Source: an uncultured Acidobacteriota bacterium (GTDB taxonomy: Bacteria; Acidobacteriota; Thermoanaerobaculia; Multivoradales; SZUA-115). Taken from it: a DNA stretch of 64,000 bases. The stretch covers positions 448,001 through 512,000 of the forward strand of contig CAWDVR010000002.1 of the NCBI GenBank assembly GCA_963805975.1, in the 5' to 3' direction. The position numbers and the translations under genes were made by a program. This document shows positions 43,736 through 52,808 of the stretch, piece by piece. The notes under the pieces were generated by a model, which was not told the origin of the DNA, made no database searches, and was given only the letters and a program-made list of their open reading frames with translations. Each line of letters opens with the position of its first letter. The first letter of the stretch is position 1.

Positions 43736-43996
43736 ATGGCCAACCTGACCCGTTCGAAGACGCGCTGGATCCTGCTCGGCGCTCTGCTGGTCGTGATCGC
43801 GACCGTCGCCACGCTGGTACCGCAGAGTGCCGATGCGATCCAGGGAGTGTGCGCCTACTACAGCGACGCCACCTACACCACGGTGGTGGGCGCGCGCGGC
43901 ACCGGCTGCTGCGGCAGCGTGATCAACTGGGGCATCACCACCCCCTATCGCCGCTGCGAGCAGCTCTACTGTCCTGACGTGGTCTGTCCGGACTAG
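43736..43996 (+). CDS. Small secreted cysteine-rich protein (DUF6289-like)
   Basis: AAGGAG RBS; signal peptide ending ADA; YYSDATYTTVVG..CCG...WG.TT.Y; six Cys in about 52 mature residues. Confidence 0.75.
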   Translation: MANLTRSKTRWILLGALLVVIATVATLVPQSADAIQGVCAYYSDATYTTVVGARGTGCCGSVINWGITTPYRRCEQLYCPDVVCPD

Positions 43997-44056: not shown

Positions 44057-44800
44057 CTAGAAACCGATCCGCCGCATGATGAACCGCGGCAGAGAGCGGA
44101 TCACCAGCATGATCCAGCGCCAGATCGCCGGCGCGTAGACCACCGGCGTGCCGCGGTCGAGGGCCCTGAGCACCCGCCGCGCCACCCCGTCCGGCTCGCC
44201 GGCGAACGGCGGCGGCTTCAAGCCTTCCGTCATGCCGGTCCTGACGAACCCCGGCTTGACGCAGACCACCCTGAGCCCCTGGGCCCGGAACTTGTGGTCC
44301 AGCCCCTCGAGGTAGCGCGTCAGCCCGGCCTTGGCCGCGCCGTAGAGGATCACCGGCTTTCGTCCCCGCTCGCCGGCCACCGAGCTGAAGACGCAGAGGG
44401 TGCCGCCGCCCCGCGCCAGGAGCCGCCGCCGCGCCTCCTCGCAGAATTGCACGGTGCGCGCGAAGTCCACGTCCAACACGCGCGCGGCGAGCTCGGCGTC
44501 GGCCTCCAGCCGCTCCTGCGGCGCGAAGAGGCCCGCCGTCACCACTATGGTATCGAGCCCCGAGAGCGTGTCCTCCGCTGCCGCCAGAGCAGGTGCGAAG
44601 GTCTCTGGGCGCTCCAGATCGCAAAAAGCTGTGCCCACACAAACCCCGGAATGACCTGAACGTACCTCGAGATCGCGCGCCGAGGCCTCGAGATCCGCGC
44701 GGTCGCGGCCCAGAAGGAAAACCTCGTCCCCCCGTTCCGCCAGCCGACGGGCGAGCGCCCGTCCCATTCCTTTCGTGCCTCCAATAAGAGCGACTTTCAT
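44057..44800 (-). CDS. SDR oxidoreductase, DprE2-like
   Basis: GGTKGMG, FSSVAGERGR, YGAAKAG, VKPGFVRTGMT. Confidence 0.8.
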   Translation of the reverse strand: MKVALIGGTKGMGRALARRLAERGDEVFLLGRDRADLEASARDLEVRSGHSGVCVGTAFCDLERPETFAPALAAAEDTLSGLDTIVVTAGLFAPQERLEADAELAARVLDVDFARTVQFCEEARRRLLARGGGTLCVFSSVAGERGRKPVILYGAAKAGLTRYLEGLDHKFRAQGLRVVCVKPGFVRTGMTEGLKPPPFAGEPDGVARRVLRALDRGTPVVYAPAIWRWIMLVIRSLPRFIMRRIGF

Positions 44801-44887: not shown

Positions 44888-47800
44888 ATGTCCGCCACCA
44901 CGAGCAAGAAAGCCCTCGTTTCCCCGGCCCTGCTCCTCGCGGCGGGCCTGCTGCCGGCAGGGCAGGCGCCCGGCGACGAGAGCGGTGGTGCCGTGCTGGT
45001 GGCTCCCGCCGCGCCACGCGGGCGCATGATCGCCTCCGGCGAAGCGCATGCCTGGCGCGTCGAGGCGGCCGGCAGCCCGCTCCTGGTCACCGTCGAGCAG
45101 CTCGGCATCGATCTCGTGGTCGAGGTGCGCGGGCCGGACGATCAGAGCGCGCGAACGATCGACGGCCCCACCAGCCGCTGGGGGCCGGAGGTGGTCGTGC
45201 TCACCGCCGGCATCGCGGGCACGTACCGCCTGGAGGTCCGTCCGGGAGGGCAGGACGTTCCTCCGGGCCGCTACGCCATCGCCGTCGAGCCGCTGGAGAC
45301 GGGGGACACCGCGCGCCAGGCCGCGGCCCAGGCCATGAGCCATGCCTCCGAGCTGGTCTCCAGCGCCACGCCCGCGGCATTGAGCCTGGCCGGCACCTCC
45401 TACCGCGAAGCCCTGGAGGCCGGGCAGGCCGCGGGCGAGCCGCGCTGGGAGGCCGAGGCCTGGCACGCCCTCGCCGCCGTGGACCAGATGCGCGGCGACC
45501 TGCGCTCGGCGGCGGCCGGCTACCAGGAGGCGGCCGTGCTCTGGCGGCTCCTGGGAGACGCTCGCCGCGAGGCCGCGGCGCTCAACGGCCTGGGGCGCAC
45601 TCTCCTGGACCGCGGCGAGCTGGATGCGGCCCGCCGCACCTTCACCGAGTCGGTCGGTCTCTGGCAGCGCACGGGAGAGCGCCTCGAGGAGGGCGAGGTC
45701 CGCATCAACCTCTGCCTGGTGGAGCAGACGGCCGGCGCGGCACAGGGCGCCCTCGCCTGCTACGAGGAGGCCCGCGCGCTCTTCCAGGAAACCGGCGACC
45801 CGAGCCAGGAGGCGCGGATCCTCAACAACATGGGAGGCATCCACGACGCCCTGGGCGAGCCCGACAGGGCTCTGCGCTCGTACGAGCAGGCGCTCGCCCT
45901 GCGCCGGCGGCTCGGCGACCGTCTCGGCGAGGCCCAGATCCTCAACAACCTCGGCACCGTCCACCGGGCCCTGGGCGAGTGGCCCGAGGCGCTGCGCCTC
46001 TACGCCGAGGCACGGCAGATGCTCGCCTCTCTGAGCGCCGGTGTGGAGGAGGCCAAGCTGCTGAACAACATCGGCTTCGCCTACACCAGCCTGGGAGAGC
46101 CGCAGCGGGCGCTGGTTTCGCACCAGGAGGCCCTGAGGCTGCGCCGCGAGACCGGCGACCGGCGGGGAGAGGTCGTCTCGCTCAACAACCTGGGCATCGC
46201 CTGGCGCAGCCTCGGCGAGCTGCAGACGTCCCTCGACCACCACCGGCGGGCCTTGGAGATCGCCTCGGCGCTCGGCGACCCTCGCCAGCAGGCGATCAGC
46301 CGTCTGCGTCTCGCCGAGGCCCTGCTCGATCTGGGCGAACCCGAGGCCGCCCTGCGCGAGCTCGGCACCACCTCGACCTATCTGCGCGAGGCGGGGGACC
46401 GCCGCAACGAAGGCCTGATGCTCCACCTGCGCGGCCGGGCCCTCACTCTCGCAGGCCGCCCCCGGGAAGCCTTGCCGCTGCTCGAGGAGGCATTGGAACG
46501 GCGGCGGGCGGTGAGCGACCGCGCGGGCGAGGCGGACACTCTCCATGCTCTGGGCGCCGCGGCTCGCAGACTCGGCCTGACCCGAGAGGCGCGCGCCCAC
46601 GCCGAGGCGGCGGTGTCCCGGGTCGAGGCCATGCGTTCCCGTTTCGTGAGTCCCAACCTCCGCGCCGCCTTCCTCGCGGCGCAGCGGAGCGCCTACTCAC
46701 TGCTCATCGACCTGCTGATGGACCGCCACGCCGCCGAGCCCACGGCCGGCCACGACCGGGCCGCGCTCGAGGTCAGCGAGCGGGCGCGCGCCCGCACGCT
46801 CCTCGACCGCCTGAGCGAGCGGCCCGGTTCGGCTGGCGCAGCCGCCAACTTCGGCACCGAGACCGGTCTGCTCGAGCGCCGGCGGTCGCTCCGCCGCCGG
46901 CTGAGCGCCAAGACGGACCAGCTCCTGAAGCAGGCGGGCGCCAGCGCCGAGGCGCTGGGGCGCGAGATCGAGGTCCTGCTCACCGACCTCGACGGCGTCG
47001 AGGCGGAGATCCGCGGGCAGAGCCCCGGCGCTGCCGGTGCCGGCGACCCGCGGCCGATCTCCCTGCCCGAGATCGCCGGCCTTCTCGACCCCGAAACGCT
47101 GCTCCTCGAGTATTCGCTCGGTGAGGAGCGGAGCTTCCTCTGGGCGGTGGGGGCCGGCACCTTCCGCAGCTTCGTCCTTCCTCCCCAGCGGGAGATCGAG
47201 GCGCTGGCCCGCCAGGTGTACCAGGAAGTCTCGACCGTCGAGGTAGGAGCGGGCCCTCAATCGAGCCCAGCCCAGGAGGCGCTGGCCCAGATCCTCCTCG
47301 CCCCGGTGTGGAGCGAGGCGGAGCGCGGCAAGCGGCTGGTCCTGGTGCCGGACGCGTCGCTGCACCTCGTGCCTTTCGCGGCCCTGCCGGTGCCCGTGCC
47401 AGGGCTGGCCTGGGACGCGGCAGGAGGTCCCCGCCAACCCCTCCTCGAGCGGCAGGAGGTGGTCTACCTCCCTTCTGCCTCGACCCTGGCCCTCGAGCGG
47501 CTGCGGCTCGGCCAGCGGGGCGTGGCTCCGAAGTGGGCGGCAGTCCTGGCCGATCCGGTCTTCGCAGCCGACGATCCCCGCCTGGCGGGTCCGAACCTCG
47601 CCCGCCGTCCGGCGCCGGCCGCGAGCGCCCTGGCCTCGACGGCGTTGGAGCGGGGTGCGGAGGCCGCCGGCGGACCCCCTCTCTTCGAGCGCCTGCCCGG
47701 CAGCCGCCGCGAGGCCGAAGCGATCGCCAGGCTCGCACCCACGGGCCAGGTGTGGACGGCCCTCGACGCCGCGGCCAGCCGGGACGCCGTGCTCTCCGGC

Positions 47801-48262
47801 CAGCTCCGCACGTACCGCGTGGTCCATTTCGCCACCCACGCGATTGCCGACACCCGCAACCCGGAACGATCGGGGCTGGTGCTCTCGCTCGTCGATGCCG
47901 CCGGCCATCCTCTGGAGGGCTTCCTCGGCCTGCCCGAGATCTACGAGCTGAACCTCGACGCCGACCTCGCCGTCCTCTCCGGCTGCCAGACGGCCCTCGG
48001 CCGTGAGATGCGCGGCGAGGGCCTCATGGGGCTCACCCGGGGCTTCCTCTACGCCGGCGTGCCGAGGGTCGTGGCGAGCCTGTGGCGGGTGCAGGATCGG
48101 GCCACGGCGGACCTCATGTCCCACTTCTATCGGGCGCTGTGGCGCGACGGCCTCCCCCCGGCCGCGGCCCTCCACGCCGCCCAGCGCTCCCTGCGCCGCG
48201 ATCCGCGCTATCGCGACCCCTACTCCTGGGCCGGCTTCGTGCTCCAGGGGGAGTGGCGCTGA
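44888..48262 (+). CDS. Exported TPR-CHAT (caspase-like) protease
   Basis: Hydrophobic N-terminus, beta domain (EQLGIDLVV), many TPRs (ILNNLG..H..LGE...AL..Y), CHAT with HFATHA and LSGCQT, ASLWRVQD, WAGFVLQG. Confidence 0.92.
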   Translation: MSATTSKKALVSPALLLAAGLLPAGQAPGDESGGAVLVAPAAPRGRMIASGEAHAWRVEAAGSPLLVTVEQLGIDLVVEVRGPDDQSARTIDGPTSRWGPEVVVLTAGIAGTYRLEVRPGGQDVPPGRYAIAVEPLETGDTARQAAAQAMSHASELVSSATPAALSLAGTSYREALEAGQAAGEPRWEAEAWHALAAVDQMRGDLRSAAAGYQEAAVLWRLLGDARREAAALNGLGRTLLDRGELDAARRTFTESVGLWQRTGERLEEGEVRINLCLVEQTAGAAQGALACYEEARALFQETGDPSQEARILNNMGGIHDALGEPDRALRSYEQALALRRRLGDRLGEAQILNNLGTVHRALGEWPEALRLYAEARQMLASLSAGVEEAKLLNNIGFAYTSLGEPQRALVSHQEALRLRRETGDRRGEVVSLNNLGIAWRSLGELQTSLDHHRRALEIASALGDPRQQAISRLRLAEALLDLGEPEAALRELGTTSTYLREAGDRRNEGLMLHLRGRALTLAGRPREALPLLEEALERRRAVSDRAGEADTLHALGAAARRLGLTREARAHAEAAVSRVEAMRSRFVSPNLRAAFLAAQRSAYSLLIDLLMDRHAAEPTAGHDRAALEVSERARARTLLDRLSERPGSAGAAANFGTETGLLERRRSLRRRLSAKTDQLLKQAGASAEALGREIEVLLTDLDGVEAEIRGQSPGAAGAGDPRPISLPEIAGLLDPETLLLEYSLGEERSFLWAVGAGTFRSFVLPPQREIEALARQVYQEVSTVEVGAGPQSSPAQEALAQILLAPVWSEAERGKRLVLVPDASLHLVPFAALPVPVPGLAWDAAGGPRQPLLERQEVVYLPSASTLALERLRLGQRGVAPKWAAVLADPVFAADDPRLAGPNLARRPAPAASALASTALERGAEAAGGPPLFERLPGSRREAEAIARLAPTGQVWTALDAAASRDAVLSGQLRTYRVVHFATHAIADTRNPERSGLVLSLVDAAGHPLEGFLGLPEIYELNLDADLAVLSGCQTALGREMRGEGLMGLTRGFLYAGVPRVVASLWRVQDRATADLMSHFYRALWRDGLPPAAALHAAQRSLRRDPRYRDPYSWAGFVLQGEWR

Positions 48263-48358
48263 GATTTCTCGCTCCCCGGTGAGATAGCGGCGGCCGCCGC
48301 GACAGCAGAGAGGAAACCACCTCGGCGCCGGGAGCGCCGGAAACCAAGAGGAGGAGCC

Positions 48359-48748
48359 ATGAGCCGCACTCTCATGAAAAGGACCCTGGGCTGGAAAGTC
48401 GACGAGATTCCCTCGACGATGTACGACCTGGGCCTCGCCCCGGTGCCCGTCATGCCCACCCTCAAGTTCCTGGATACCGGCAGCCACCTGAGGATCGACG
48501 ATTCCGGCGCCGGAAGCCGCTGGAACGACGTGCTCTGCGCCCCCGCTGCCGGCTCTCTAGAGAAGGAGTGGACCGGCACGCTGGAGAACCCCTCTCAGGC
48601 CTTCGTCATCACGCTGTCGACGAGCGGCTCGAAGAGCTTGGAGGTGAGCGTCGCCGCCGCTGTGACTCCGGATCCCCGCGGCGGTGGCCGCGACGACAAC
48701 TACGGCCCCCCGGCCGGCGGTTCCTGGACCGCGCAGGAAGGTAGCTGA
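48359..48748 (+). CDS. Hypothetical 129-aa protein in CHAT cassette
   Basis: GAGGAGGAG RBS, GC3-rich codons, no recognisable family; ends GGSWTAQEGS. Confidence 0.75.
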   Translation: MSRTLMKRTLGWKVDEIPSTMYDLGLAPVPVMPTLKFLDTGSHLRIDDSGAGSRWNDVLCAPAAGSLEKEWTGTLENPSQAFVITLSTSGSKSLEVSVAAAVTPDPRGGGRDDNYGPPAGGSWTAQEGS

Positions 48749-48910
48749 GGCCGCCGGCGGCTTCCGGTGAGAGATCGACCGAGAAGGTGATCCATGTGCG
48801 CGGCAGTGACAGTGGCGCTCGGAGAGCGGGGTATGATGTTCCCTCTCCCGGCGAGATCTCCGGCACGCGCGGCAGAGGGCTTGCGCCCACGCCGAGACGC
48901 AGTGGGCGCC

Positions 48911-49519
48911 ATGAGCACCGATGCGGCACCCGAGCTTTCCGAGGCCGAGGTCGCGGCCGACCTCGGCCGGCGGATCGCGGCCGGCGACGCGGCGGCCGAA
49001 GGGCAGCTCGTCGAGCGCTACAGCCGCGGCCTTCTCTACCTCCTGCGGCGCCTGGGCGCTCCGCCGGAAGCCGCGGAGGATCTCCACCAGGAATCCTTCC
49101 GCATCGCCCTCGAGCGGCTGCGGACCAGCGGCCTCGACGACCCGGCGGGCCTCGGCGGTTTCCTGCGCGGTATCGCGCGCAACCTGATGGTGGCCGACCG
49201 GCGCAAGAGCGCCCGCCGCCGCACCGAGGCCGACCCCGAGCGGCTCGAGCAGGCCGCCCATCCCGCGCCGAGCCAGCTCTCCTGCGTGCTCCACGACGAG
49301 GAGGCCGCGATCGTGCGGCGGCTGATCGGCGAGCTGCCGACCGACCGCGACCGGCAGCTCCTGCTGCGCTTCTACGTTGCCGAAGAGGAAAAGGAAAGCA
49401 TCTGTGCCGACCTCGCCCTCGACAGCCTCCACTTCAACCGCGTCCTGTTCCGCGCCCGGCAGCGCTTCAAGGAGCTCCTGGAGCATTCCGCGGGACGGCA
49501 GGCGCAGTGGAGCTCGTGA
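48911..49519 (+). CDS. ECF-type sigma70 factor (start uncertain)
   Basis: Region 2 (GDAAAEGQLVERY, AEDLHQESF, FLRGIARNL), region 4 ([26 protein letters not shown]). Confidence 0.9.
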   Translation: MSTDAAPELSEAEVAADLGRRIAAGDAAAEGQLVERYSRGLLYLLRRLGAPPEAAEDLHQESFRIALERLRTSGLDDPAGLGGFLRGIARNLMVADRRKSARRRTEADPERLEQAAHPAPSQLSCVLHDEEAAIVRRLIGELPTDRDRQLLLRFYVAEEEKESICADLALDSLHFNRVLFRARQRFKELLEHSAGRQAQWSS

Positions 49520-49535
49520 GGTGAAAAGAGAGGCC

Positions 49536-50399
49536 ATGGACCACACCTACATCGAGGAGCACCAGATCGTCGAGCGCTATGCGATGGGCAAGCTCCTGGA
49601 ACCGGAGCTGGGGCCCTTCGAGGAGCATTACCTCTCCTGCCCGCGTTGCCTGGACCGGCTGGCCCTGGCGGAGGCCATGGAGCGGGGCTTCAAGCGCGCC
49701 GCCGGCGAGGACACCCAGCGGCTCGCCACCGCCCGACAGCTCGCCCTGGTGGCCTGGCTCACCCGCCTCGGCCGCTCGCGCCAGCTGGCCCTGGTGGCGA
49801 CAGCGCTCCTCGTCGCCGCGCTGCCTGCGGGCTTGGCCGTGCGCGAGGCGCGGCAACGAAACGAGGAGCTGGCGGAGGTCCGCTCGGCCCTGGTGGAGGC
49901 GCGAGCGCGATCTGCCGCGGGCTCGCGCGAGGCGGTGGCCGAGGCCGAGAGGCTGCGCGGCGAGCTCGACGCGAGCCACCTCGAGCTCGCCCGCGAGCAG
50001 GAGGCCCGTGCCCGGACGGCCGCGGAGCTGGCGGCGGCACGTTCCCCCCAGGCCAACGTCCCGATCCTGTTCCTGAGTGCCGAACGCGGCAGCGGCCCGC
50101 CCGCGGAAGGGCCCACCTACCTCCTCCGCCTGCCCGAGAGCCCGGGATGGATCGTTCTCGCCCTGGAGATCGAGCCGCCGCACCAGCCTTCCTACCGCGC
50201 CGCGCTTCGCGATCCGCGGGGGAAAGAGATCTGGCGTGGCGCGGGCCTCAGGCCGAGTGAGCTCGAGACCCTGAGCCTGAGCCTTCCCACCTCGCTCCTC
50301 GCGCCGGGCGACTATGCCCTCTCCGTGGAAGGCGTCCCCCCGGGCGGCAAGCCCGTGGCCGCCGGGCGCTTCACCTTCCGCGTGCTTCCCGCCGCCTGA
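49536..50399 (+). CDS. Membrane anti-sigma factor: zf-HC2, TM helix, coiled coil, Ig-like C-domain
   Basis: FEEHYLSCPRC (HxxxCxxC), TM LALVATALLVAALPAGLAV, heptad-rich segment, beta-rich tail LAPGDYALSVEG. Confidence 0.85.
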   Translation: MDHTYIEEHQIVERYAMGKLLEPELGPFEEHYLSCPRCLDRLALAEAMERGFKRAAGEDTQRLATARQLALVAWLTRLGRSRQLALVATALLVAALPAGLAVREARQRNEELAEVRSALVEARARSAAGSREAVAEAERLRGELDASHLELAREQEARARTAAELAAARSPQANVPILFLSAERGSGPPAEGPTYLLRLPESPGWIVLALEIEPPHQPSYRAALRDPRGKEIWRGAGLRPSELETLSLSLPTSLLAPGDYALSVEGVPPGGKPVAAGRFTFRVLPAA

Positions 50400-50673: not shown

Positions 50674-52014
50674 CTATCGGCGGTCGTCCAACAGGCGCGC
50701 CGACTGTGCGCTCGCCAGGCGGTGCTGGGGGTCCCAGCGCCGCCTGGTCTCTTCGAAGCGAGGGAGGCGGTCGGCCTCCATGGCGCGGAAGTGCTCCGGG
50801 CGGGTGAAGGCGTCCTTCGCCAGATAGACCCGGCCGCCTTCCTCGATCACCCGCTCGTTCAAGGCGTCGATCAGCTCCTGCGTGTCGCCGCGCACCGGCA
50901 GGTCGGCGGCGATCGAGATGCCCGGTCGCGGGAAGGAGAGCAATCCTTCGCCTTGCGCGCCGCAGTCCTTGATCACGCAGAGGAAAGAGGCGCCGCCGCG
51001 GCGGGTGAGCTCGCCGAGCACCCTTCGTGCCGCGCCCGGCCGCTCGCCCTCGGGCAGCACGCACTGGTACTGGGTGAAGCCGCGGGGCCCGTAGATCCGG
51101 TTCCAGTGGAGCACGGCGTCGAGCGGGTAGAAGAAGGTCTCGGGATCGACGATCCGGCGCCGCAGCCGGGTGAGCTGGGAGCGGTAGTAGACCTCGTTGA
51201 AGAGACGGACGGTGGCTCGCGACAGCGCCCAGCCGGGAAACACCACCGGCACGCCGCGCCGCCGGCGTGGCTTCGGGAAGCTCTGCGGCGCCTGCCCCGG
51301 CTCCGCCCAGCGCCCGCGGATCAGAAGGCCACGCCCCAGGGCCCGGCCCTTCGCCAGGCAGTCGATCCATCCCACGGTGTAAGGCCAGTCCACGGCCGAC
51401 CGCCGCAACTCGGCGAGGAAGGCGTCGAGGTCCTTTATGCGCTCGCTCTCGCACCAGAGCCAGGGCGAGGGGACGCGTTGCAGGCGGGCTTCGACCTCCA
51501 GGATGTGGCCGGTGAGGCCCATCCCGCCCAGAGTGGCGCGGAAGAGGTCCGGCTCCTCGCTGCGCGAGCAGGTCACCACCCGGCCGTCGGCACAGAGCAT
51601 CTTGAGAGCGGTGACGTGGTTGCCGAAGGTGCCGTCCTTGTGATGGCTCTTGCCATGGACGTCGGCGGCCACCATGCCACCGAGCGTCACGTACTGGGTG
51701 CCGGGCGAGGAGGGTGGCCAGAAGCCGCGCGGCAGGAAGAGGCGGATGACCTCGGCCAGCGAGAGCCCGGCCTCGGCGCGCAGCAACCCGGTTTGGGCAT
51801 CGAAGGAGAGGACGCGGTCCGCGAGCGTCGAGCCGGCGACGTCGAGCGCACCCGGCGGCGGCAGCGAGGAATCGCCATACGAGCGGCCGAGCCCGCGGGT
51901 CAGGGGGAGGCCGCGAGCGATGCGCTCGAGATCCTCGGAGCGGATCTCGCGGCCCGGCACCGGCAAGCGGCCCCAGCCGGAGAGCGTGGGCTCGCTCGGG
52001 AGCGGGCTCGTCAC
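50674..52014 (-). CDS. FAD-binding oxidoreductase, DprE1-like
   Basis: LSGWG, RGLGRSYGDS, PGTQYVTLGG..ADVHGKSHH, FFYPLD..WNRIYG..GFTQYQ, GRVYLAKD; GTGA overlap with mqnA. Confidence 0.88.
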   Translation of the reverse strand: MTSPLPSEPTLSGWGRLPVPGREIRSEDLERIARGLPLTRGLGRSYGDSSLPPPGALDVAGSTLADRVLSFDAQTGLLRAEAGLSLAEVIRLFLPRGFWPPSSPGTQYVTLGGMVAADVHGKSHHKDGTFGNHVTALKMLCADGRVVTCSRSEEPDLFRATLGGMGLTGHILEVEARLQRVPSPWLWCESERIKDLDAFLAELRRSAVDWPYTVGWIDCLAKGRALGRGLLIRGRWAEPGQAPQSFPKPRRRRGVPVVFPGWALSRATVRLFNEVYYRSQLTRLRRRIVDPETFFYPLDAVLHWNRIYGPRGFTQYQCVLPEGERPGAARRVLGELTRRGGASFLCVIKDCGAQGEGLLSFPRPGISIAADLPVRGDTQELIDALNERVIEEGGRVYLAKDAFTRPEHFRAMEADRLPRFEETRRRWDPQHRLASAQSARLLDDRR

Positions 52015-52808
52015 GCCGCCCACAGCTCGAGCTCCCGCGGCGTCTCGATCAGGCCGTGGAGGTGAGCGCGGCGGTAGTACTCCTTGAGCGAGGCGATCTC
52101 CTCGTCGCGCAGGAAGTAGTGCAGGTTCTGCGTCAGGTAGGTCTCGACCTCGGCCGGCGGCAGCCCCAGCTCGGCGGCCGACTCGGCGACCAGCTCGGAC
52201 ATGGACGAGAGCCCGTAGAGCAGGCTGCTCTTCAGGTAGTGGGTCAGGCCGGGCAGGTCGACGTGCGGGCGCACCGCCCAGACGGCGAAGACGGCGGGCC
52301 GGCCGGTCAGAGCCCGCCACTCGGCCGCGAGGTCCAGGATCTGGTAGCGCTCGCGATCCACGGTCAGGGCCGGGTCGCCGATCACCAGCGCGGCATCGGC
52401 GTCCGCGAGCATCGCCTCGAGGTCCGGCTTCGCCGCCACGTACTCGGGCGCCAGGCCGTAGCGGTCGGCGAGCAGGATCTTCACCAGCCCCGCCGAGGTG
52501 CGGCTGTTGACGTCGAGCGCCACGCGGCGCACCTCCTGAACCGGCCGGCCGAGGACGAGGAGGACGCTCCGCACCTCGCGCTCCGCGGCCACGCAGAGGT
52601 CGGGCACCACTTCGAGGCCGGGGATTCGCTGCACCTCGATGGCCGGGATCAGACCGACGTCGAGAGTGCCCGCGGCCAGCATGTCCGCCACCTCGGCCGG
52701 CGGGCGGTAGCTCGCCTCGAAGAGGTCGGCGTGGCGGCCCTTCAAGAAGCCCCACGCCAGCGGCTTGCTGTTGAGGAAGTTGACGATCCCGACCCGAAGT
52801 CGACTCAC
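52011..52808 (-). CDS. mqnA: Chorismate dehydratase (futalosine pathway)
   Basis: VNFLNSKPL, VRSVLL, SRTS, ALVIGDPAL, DLAAEW..TG.P.VFAVW. Confidence 0.9.
   Translation of the reverse strand: MSRLRVGIVNFLNSKPLAWGFLKGRHADLFEASYRPPAEVADMLAAGTLDVGLIPAIEVQRIPGLEVVPDLCVAAEREVRSVLLVLGRPVQEVRRVALDVNSRTSAGLVKILLADRYGLAPEYVAAKPDLEAMLADADAALVIGDPALTVDRERYQILDLAAEWRALTGRPAVFAVWAVRPHVDLPGLTHYLKSSLLYGLSSMSELVAESAAELGLPPAEVETYLTQNLHYFLRDEEIASLKEYYRRAHLHGLIETPRELELWAA

Follow-up and report, generated by a model that had tools for sequence, protein, structure and literature searches.

A conserved TPR-CHAT protease, ECF sigma factor and anti-sigma cassette in Thermoanaerobaculia as a candidate two-protein form of the DdvA/DdvS switch

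Background

What does a caspase-like protease act on when its gene stands beside those of a sigma factor and a membrane anti-sigma? To our knowledge, bacterial TPR-CHAT proteins are widespread, and the substrates of most of them are not known. We analyzed such a locus in the window, a stretch of 64,000 nucleotides of DNA from an uncultured bacterium of the class Thermoanaerobaculia (Acidobacteriota). Four genes, all on the + strand (44888-50399), encode a TPR-CHAT protease, a small protein of 129 aa, an ECF sigma factor, and a membrane anti-sigma. The original prediction had described these co-oriented genes and had placed the catalytic His and Cys codons, all of which we confirmed, and had proposed that the protease makes the site-1 cut that releases the sigma factor.

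Results

Conservation and setting of the cassette

The cassette was found to be conserved within Thermoanaerobaculia, with a co-oriented CHAT gene directly upstream (at most 2.5 kb) in 27 of 43 anti-sigma relatives. The sigma gene was directly upstream of the anti-sigma gene at 42 of these 43 loci, and 32 had a CHAT gene anywhere in the locus, while 8 loci with at least 5 kb of upstream sequence had none in the retrieved DNA. The source genome multiplies the arrangement: 12 of its 20 CHAT genes had a sigma region-2 gene at most 3 genes away, whereas 10,000 permutations gave 0.99 on average and never more than 7, a baseline in which tandem CHAT genes are non-independent. The other 8 had no sigma region-2 match at most 3 genes away. 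The original prediction had noted that similar neighbourhoods may be common in this lineage. In the soil lineage, genomes can carry at least 20 CHAT genes.

The genes flanking the cassette were housekeeping or unrelated, with no cas7-11, csx30, or csx31 beside it, and the locus was not assigned to the type III-E Craspases. The presumed absence of cas genes agreed with the lack of a cas1 match in the source genome (96% complete). In the 4 cassette proteins PADLOC annotated nothing beyond generic TPR, and in a set of 62 proteins, drawn from the core, the neighbourhood, and the known part of the regulon, only scattered generic domains. On these cas1 and PADLOC results, a defence-island setting was set aside as unlikely. 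A sigma-70 consensus scan inside the cassette detected neither promoter nor terminator.

The TPR-CHAT protease

The first gene (44888..48262, + strand) encodes a protein of 1124 aa with a signal-peptide-like N-terminus, a small N-terminal domain, a TPR array, and a CHAT domain. Pfam placed CHAT (PF12770) at residues 797-1122 with an E-value of 1e-72 and a score of 245.6 bits (cut-off 24), and TPR repeats were also detected. The catalytic dyad, His984 (codon at 47837) and Cys1033 (47984), did not vary among the 24 aligned orthologs, and neither did the acidic residues D889, E942, and D1070. The worry that an Ala in place of the usual Gly after the catalytic His marks a dead enzyme was dropped, since both residues occur among the 24 orthologs (Ala in 10, Gly in 14). 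A hydrophobic stretch lies near residues 9-25, and of the relatives in which the start of the domain could be recognised, all 17 had such a stretch in the preceding 45 residues, which suggests that the protease is likely exported and periplasmic. By sequence, the TPR part was closest in the PDB to LGN/PINS, with kinesin light chain among the next matches, and the sole structure matched by the CHAT domain was separase, weakly (E 0.95).

Sigma factor and anti-sigma

The ECF sigma factor (202 aa; 48911..49519, + strand) matched Sigma70_r2 in Pfam and, just above the cut-off, TIGR02937 in NCBIfam. It directly precedes a single-pass, zinc-binding anti-sigma of 287 aa (49536..50399, + strand), for which an alternative upstream start at 49521 is possible. 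The anti-sigma of the window had no Pfam match at E<=0.1; PF13490 was found in many of its homologs, and H3, H31, C35, and C38 (H-x27-H-x3-C-x2-C, HHCC) were invariant across 45 aligned sequences. Its single hydrophobic stretch at residues 84-102 (KD 2.38) is a predicted transmembrane helix, the AlphaFold model has a long helix (98-169) followed by a beta-sandwich, and Foldseek returned Ig/cupredoxin-like matches for the outer domain. The earlier description as a zf-HC2 anti-sigma with a transmembrane helix and an Ig-like domain is consistent with all of these features. An ECF sigma gene directly before a single-pass anti-sigma gene, as found here, is the order expected of pairs regulated by intramembrane proteolysis. 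Further, a full-length M50 peptidase match in the genome (E 1e-64) is a site-2 protease candidate with a putative action on the anti-sigma.

An invariant arginine as the predicted cut site

The predicted site-1 cut lies between Arg184 and Gly185 (50085..50090, + strand), in the outer domain of the anti-sigma, within a loop spanning residues 182-194 of the model. Arg184 was present in 120 of 120 anti-sigma homologs, the next residue being G, S, or D in every one, and is the only fully invariant residue among the 22 Arg beyond the membrane helix. Ten other CHAT-linked anti-sigmas of the source genome, with unlike outer domains, carried R-G/R-S (9) or R-D (1), the R-G/R-S positioned 18-36 residues past the membrane helix. 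Across five other genomes, R-G/R-S was found in 13 of 14 CHAT-linked single-pass zf-HC2 proteins versus 6 of 16 unlinked ones (Fisher p 0.002), a comparison between related genomes for which the choice of a 20-65 residue window and the removal of 15 control rows came post hoc. R-G/R-S is frequent in these GC-rich proteins, as the 6 of 16 controls illustrate. An aligned Arg occupied the corresponding place in ten members of this class in which anti-sigma, TPR, and CHAT are fused. From these alignments, Arg184 is likely the site at which CHAT would cut the anti-sigma.

Having a CHAT gene nearby is not strictly required for the Arg: of the 8 CHAT-less loci with 5 kb or more of upstream DNA, 7 retain it, and it may have a structural role or be used by a different protease. 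The CHAT protein may bind and shield the outer domain or only sense the signal, with another periplasmic protease cutting the Arg loop, a reading that we consider unlikely. The CHAT-less relatives that keep the Arg speak for it, and so does DdvA of Myxococcus xanthus, whose dyad was captured at rest, whose dyad mutants at rest were like the wild type, and whose self-cleavage was not observed, according to the available text of PMC11506125. Mutants that are silent at rest also fit a cutting model, however, and a pure scaffold would not need a dyad and acidic residues, yet both are invariant. The idea of CHAT as an exported site-1 protease for the anti-sigma is partly supported, with backing from the gene order, the catalytic residues, the signal-peptide-like N-termini, and the invariant Arg loop.

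Promoter and regulon

We identified a putative ECF-type promoter, GTGAGATA-N12-[G/A/C]CGACAG (48279..48306, + strand), past the CHAT stop codon and ahead of the small gene; of 30 upstream regions aligned, 29 contained the motif. A matrix trained without this site gave it 28.8 bits, against a shuffled-genome maximum of 19.0. Five sites of at least 22 bits were found genome-wide, located 80-117 bases ahead of the start codons of the small gene and of four other genes. Related loci held 68 sites (28 of them training sites) compared with 0-1 in 20 shuffles. The cassette sigma is predicted to recognise GTGAGATA-N12-CGACAG. The putative regulon is rich in secreted proteins, including trypsin-like, M36, and FG-GAP proteins; a regulon protein of 136 aa had weak, unnamed matches alone in the ESM Atlas.

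Such a regulon would also suit a CHAT enzyme that works as an independent exported protease, maturing or destroying secreted regulon or foreign proteins, while a general envelope protease switches the sigma/anti-sigma pair. The 8 CHAT genes without a nearby sigma gene are compatible with this role as well. We judge it improbable: at nearly every locus the putative promoter leaves out the CHAT gene, which in this cassette lies upstream of it, ten relatives have CHAT fused to the anti-sigma, and the Arg loop is enriched among CHAT-linked anti-sigmas.

The small barrel protein

The second gene (48359..48748, + strand) encodes a leaderless protein of 129 aa predicted to form an 8-stranded beta-barrel (pLDDT 79.6). 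Its family comprised 407 representatives at E<=1e-3 and was highly variable (median identity 24%), with strong ribosome-binding sites in most relatives. The C-terminal motif W-T-A-x-E-G (48725..48742, + strand) forms the last barrel strand (model residues 121-127). Its W was found in 127 of 137 short representatives; of these 127, 115 had E/D at +4 and 117 had G at +5. Tandem forms keep an internal [F/Y]-T-A-x-E. The motif was rejected as a double-glycine RiPP leader, 32 of the 127 members having at most 2 residues past the E/D position.

No Pfam family was shared among 31 small proteins, no NCBIfam family was found for three representatives, and the ESM Atlas gave weak, unnamed matches alone. 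Fold comparison indicated an avidin/lipocalin-like shape (VIA, Z 8.0-9.3, rmsd 2.9-3.8 over ~100 aligned residues), a likeness in shape only; potempin E (Z 6.4) and Cap15 (Z 7.2) scored in the middle range, and Foldseek was weak (E>=0.18 at best). The small gene is predicted to found an unnamed, leaderless, fast-evolving beta-barrel family that heads the operon. A part in an extracytoplasmic relay was not upheld for the protein, which has no signal peptide and stands behind the putative sigma-dependent promoter. Because it is leaderless and downstream of that promoter, we take it to be produced by the switch, most likely as a cytoplasmic output, and not to act as a relay.

The barrel might still pair with the protease itself, acting as its cognate inhibitor or as an activating ligand and docking by its W-T-A-x-E-G strand in a feedback loop. 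Regions retrieved with the small-protein profile had the gene directly behind a CHAT gene in 14 of 17 cases, the motif is retained although the remainder is only ~24% identical, and the TPR part resembles the peptide-binding TPRs of LGN/PINS and kinesin light chain. Staphostatins are barrel-shaped protease inhibitors whose genes lie next to those of their target proteases, and potempin E is a comparable case of a barrel-shaped inhibitor adjoining a protease gene. A hydrophobic N-terminus occurs in just 1 of 103 family members, though, against an exported-looking CHAT, and much of the motif may be structural because it is the last barrel strand and tandem forms keep [F/Y]-T-A-x-E internally; we regard the partnership as decidedly unlikely. 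The complex prediction of CHAT residues 254-1124 with the small protein scored 0.00 ('no answer') and counts neither way.

More of a long shot is a role for the barrel as the signal itself. Made in bulk after the sigma fires, it would leave lysed cells, and in neighbouring kin its motif strand would enter the TPR groove of the periplasmic CHAT, prompting that enzyme to cut the anti-sigma at Arg184. This would amount to a self-amplifying, caspase-gated cell-to-cell alarm arming the secreted regulon, with about a dozen insulated CHAT/sigma channels per genome.

Discussion

We favour, as the probable reading of this locus, a two-protein switch of the DdvA/DdvS type in which CHAT likely cuts the anti-sigma after Arg184 and releases the sigma. 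The likely periplasmic TPR-CHAT would probably be held off until its TPR groove binds a signal. Once active, we infer, it would cut the adjoining anti-sigma past Arg184 as the site-1 cut, and an RseP-type membrane protease would complete the removal of the anti-sigma. The freed sigma would then read the predicted promoter and activate the operon to which it belongs (barrel, sigma, and anti-sigma genes), along with a small regulon in which secreted proteins abound.

The original prediction knew of no characterised mechanism for such an arrangement. DdvA/DdvS of M. xanthus provides a precedent, though the site-1 cut by CHAT, followed by RseP, is merely proposed there, RseP removing DdvA after loss of its outer part (PMC11506125, available text). 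It is also a closer reference than the Craspase first invoked, with the same parts in one protein: both systems have an ECF sigma, a zinc-binding single-pass anti-sigma, and an extracytoplasmic TPR-CHAT with a His-Cys dyad, and a profile of the ten fused class relatives matched DdvA (8rot_B, E 2.4e-6). In contrast to the single DdvA chain, the cassette protease is a separate upstream gene with a signal-peptide-like start, its anti-sigma ends with a small Ig-like domain, and a variable barrel gene leads the operon. The zinc domain is CHCC in DdvA versus HHCC here, and our searches found no CRISPR/CBASS context around the cassette. The same source, in the part available, reports DdvA-like proteins solely from Myxococcota and one Comamonas.

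In Anabaena, the CHAT protease HetF cuts PatU3 after Arg117 (R117-S118), and, as in our model, cutting a dedicated inhibitor after Arg relieves a regulator, HetZ. HetF differs in being membrane-anchored with periplasmic TPRs and a divisome-linked substrate, and the accessible text does not describe PatU3/HetZ as an ECF anti-sigma/sigma pair (PMC9457339). In the type III-E Csx29-Csx30-CASP-sigma system, a TPR-CHAT likewise cuts an inhibitor and frees a sigma, whereas that enzyme is cytoplasmic, RNA-triggered, and Cas7-11-bound (bioRxiv 2023.06.23.546230, in part). Arg specificity is not to be assumed for CHAT enzymes, because Craspases cut after Met or Leu (PMC11506125). The ECF54 group also has CHAT genes within a conserved ECF neighbourhood; the sources, as far as accessible, describe it as actinobacterial and without an anti-sigma (PMC8999054, PMC7826278), while the class described here always has a membrane anti-sigma, a separation by description rather than by clade placement. 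A literature search, mostly outside subscription papers, found no split CHAT/ECF sigma form in Acidobacteria or Thermoanaerobaculia; supplementary tables (DdvA table S7, the ECF groups of PMC7826278) may list such neighbourhoods.

The cassette thus appears to be a conserved split form of a published Myxococcus switch. The proposed self-cut of DdvA could not be demonstrated for want of a known trigger. In the split form the enzyme would be soluble, the substrate is 120 residues long, one residue is singled out for mutation, and a promoter is at hand for a reporter; for the one-piece DdvA switch, the trigger step would thereby become easy to test. The prediction of Arg184 also indicates where DdvA-like fusions may be cut. 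The locus also adds a barrel family, unnamed and fast-evolving, whose gene comes first in the putative regulon. If the cut is confirmed, caspase-like enzymes would serve as dedicated site-1 proteases beyond phage defence.

A conserved four-gene cassette

Four co-oriented genes had been predicted in this region, and all of them were found as open reading frames on the + strand: the TPR-CHAT protease gene (44888-48262), a 129-aa ORF, here the small gene (48359-48748), the ECF sigma gene (48911-49519), and the anti-sigma gene (49536-50399). Among 43 related loci gathered with the anti-sigma alignment, the sigma gene lay directly upstream of the anti-sigma gene in 42, and a co-oriented CHAT gene ended at most 2.5 kb upstream in 27. 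A CHAT gene was present anywhere within the fetched DNA at 32 of the 43 loci; at the 11 others, the DNA available upstream spans less than 1.4 kb in 3 cases and at least 5 kb in 8. The anti-sigma homologs bearing names belonged to Thermoanaerobaculia and other Acidobacteriota. Of 61 genomes from the class, 46 had CHAT matches; this tally includes 1 unpublished genome (G004), which underlies none of the other results. The window's genome has 20 CHAT genes, and 12 of them lie no more than three genes from a gene with sigma region 2, against a mean of 0.99 and a maximum of 7 in 10,000 permutations, in which tandem CHAT genes are not independent. This uncharacterised four-gene cassette is real and conserved, and a switch of its kind is already known from DdvA, the fused anti-sigma-TPR-CHAT protein of Myxococcus xanthus.

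The genes flanking the cassette vary from locus to locus. Here, it lies between a short-chain dehydrogenase gene (Pfam adh_short; 44057-44800, - strand) and a gene for what appears to be an FAD-linked oxidoreductase (50674-52023, - strand). These resemble a DprE2/DprE1-like pair, whose members are usually adjacent, a hint at insertion of the cassette. Positions 43736-43996, one gene away, encode a small Cys-rich, probably secreted protein with DUF6289.

The CHAT protease

The catalytic His and Cys codons were located at 47837 and 47984, as predicted, and the corresponding residues of the 1124-aa protein, His984 and Cys1033, are conserved without exception in the 24 orthologs aligned, as are the acidic residues D889, E942, and D1070. 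The worry that Ala instead of Gly after the catalytic His might mean an inactive enzyme falls away, because both occur there in the orthologs (Gly in 14, Ala in 10). A signal-peptide-like hydrophobic stretch preceded the first domain in all 17 relatives examined with a hydropathy test (not SignalP). The best solved-structure match of the TPR part was LGN/PINS, with kinesin light chain lower in the list; the TPRs of both bind extended peptides. That the CHAT protein acts only as a shield or sensor appears unlikely beside a fully conserved dyad.

Elsewhere in the same genome, the Pfam match of 2 CHAT genes (contig C3, 12564-13589; contig C6, 55518-56355) is spread across two reading frames, reflecting frameshifts or assembly errors. 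Behind 2 other CHAT paralogs lie leaderless genes of similar style encoding 290-340 aa (contig C2, 359356-360372; contig C1, 227727-228596), whose products are possible substrates or outputs of those paralogs.

The anti-sigma factor and its predicted cut site

The zinc-site residues H3, H31, C35, and C38 of the anti-sigma were invariant across 45 sequences. Beyond its single membrane helix (residues 84-102), the protein continues as a long helix and then an Ig-like sandwich. All 120 homologs have Arg184, which lies in the loop spanning residues 182-194; the next residue is G, S, or D in every case, and of the 22 Arg residues beyond the membrane helix it alone is fully invariant. Among the 10 other CHAT-linked anti-sigmas of the window's genome, whose outer domains are dissimilar, 9 carry R-G or R-S 18-36 residues past the helix and the tenth carries R-D.

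A wider comparison covered 55 zf-HC2 genes from five other genomes (10 CHAT-fused, 14 within 6 kb of a CHAT match, and 31 unlinked, 15 of which were removed as having no membrane helix or no outer part). R-G or R-S occurred 20-65 residues past the helix in 13 of 14 CHAT-linked versus 6 of 16 unlinked proteins (p 0.002, which overstates the difference because the residue range was chosen once the data had been seen and the genomes are related). Judging from these sequence patterns, the Arg184 loop is likely the site at which CHAT would cut the anti-sigma. Arg184 was also kept at 7 of the 8 loci with ample DNA and no local CHAT gene, which counts against that reading. The alternative that CHAT is an unrelated processing enzyme seems quite improbable alongside the association of CHAT linkage with the R-G/R-S pair.

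An anti-sigma paralog on contig C3 (863705-864559; locus L010) has no zinc domain and no adjoining sigma or CHAT gene, retains the R-G loop, and is possibly a remnant.

A promoter motif and its putative regulon

In 29 of 30 aligned regions, the small gene is preceded by a motif in two parts, GTGAGA[T/C]A-N12-[G/A/C]CGACAG. A promoter matrix trained without the window's own site found five sites at or above the 22-bit threshold in the genome (maximum of three shuffles, 19.0), all 80-117 bases upstream of a start codon. The genes behind them encode, besides the 129-aa protein, a 340-aa Gly-rich protein, a 136-aa protein, and two proteins that look secreted by eye, one an FG-GAP protein (438 aa) and the other trypsin-like (369 aa). 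The related loci held 68 sites (28 being training sites) versus 0-1 in 20 shuffles. Many of the sites lie directly after the anti-sigma gene and ahead of variable genes, often with signal-peptide-like starts, and in two loci one site comes directly before the sigma gene. The spacing of the motif and its location are what an autoregulated ECF promoter would show, and we infer that the cassette's sigma recognizes this putative promoter.

The 136-146 aa protein, behind the motif in five genomes (contig C1 of the window's genome, 442480-442890, equivalent to L060:981-1388; L016:2534; L018:185; L023:9459, - strand; L036:6787), is a second conserved member of the putative regulon, and those members that were scanned matched nothing in Pfam or NCBIfam. 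At four loci (L026:8923, L028:8910-9068, L032:1932-2096, L034:8923-9042), the anti-sigma gene is directly followed, behind the promoter, by short peptides in which NHNQTL recurs; they matched no family and give the impression of RiPP precursors. In three loci, a 294-aa gene comes next, encoding a TPR protein where scanned. What looks like a toxin-complex component, a 2562-aa protein combining an SpvB-like N-terminus with an RHS core, is encoded at L040:9083-16768, behind the motif and directly after the anti-sigma gene.

The small barrel protein

The 129-aa protein had three close matches, itself counted; its positional counterparts at other loci are nevertheless members of one family. The small protein reached a median identity of 24% across 20 loci; the corresponding values were 74% (sigma), 61% (anti-sigma), and 59% (CHAT). 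A profile search returned 407 representatives, and among the 137 short ones in the best 149, 127 carry a C-terminal W-x-[A/T], in almost every case W-[T/V]-A; counting from the W, position +4 is E/D in 115 and position +5 is G in 117. The structural model is an eight-stranded barrel with this motif as its last strand, and its shape scores as avidin-like (Z 8-9.3), a likeness that does not indicate a function. Of the 151 genomes searched from the order, 15 had members of the family; its regions lay directly behind a CHAT gene in 14 of 17 cases, with the full gene order in 11 of 17, and some loci carried two copies or tandem fusions.

A hydrophobic N-terminus was present in 1 of 103 aligned members, and a long hydrophobic stretch, preceding the motif in aligned examples, in 35 of the 137 short representatives. 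We regard a cytoplasmic output of the switch as the barrel's most likely role. Its position directly behind CHAT could also suit an inhibitor or ligand of CHAT, which we regard as improbable for a family with almost no hydrophobic N-termini.

Proposed mechanism and related systems

With moderate confidence, we propose that a signal would turn on the likely periplasmic CHAT, and that CHAT would cleave the anti-sigma on the C-terminal side of Arg184. A second cut, within the membrane, would then be made by an RseP-type protease, for which a full-length M50 peptidase encoded in the genome is a candidate. The released sigma would transcribe its own operon, with the barrel as its likely cytoplasmic output, plus a few mostly secreted outputs.

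DdvA and its sigma DdvS have the same parts in one chain, and the authors propose the CHAT cut and demonstrate the RseP step, with self-cleavage not detected (PMC11506125). The system described here would work like DdvA without being one, since its genes are separate, and our literature searches brought up no account of the split CHAT/sigma/anti-sigma form. HetF offers a precedent for cleavage after Arg by a CHAT protease (PMC9457339); Craspase is cytoplasmic and CRISPR-bound (bioRxiv 2023.06.23.546230), and cas1 had no match in the window's genome; CHAT genes also neighbour ECF54 sigmas, for which an anti-sigma is absent (PMC8999054, PMC7826278), whereas one is present here.

Ten genes in three genomes of the class (loci L104, L106, L111, L115, L116, L120, L121, L124, L133, and L146) encode fused zinc anti-sigma/TM/TPR-CHAT proteins. 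An Arg aligns across all ten in the corresponding region past the helix, and their profile matches DdvA (E 2.4e-6). These genes widen the range of DdvA-like proteins beyond that stated in PMC11506125.
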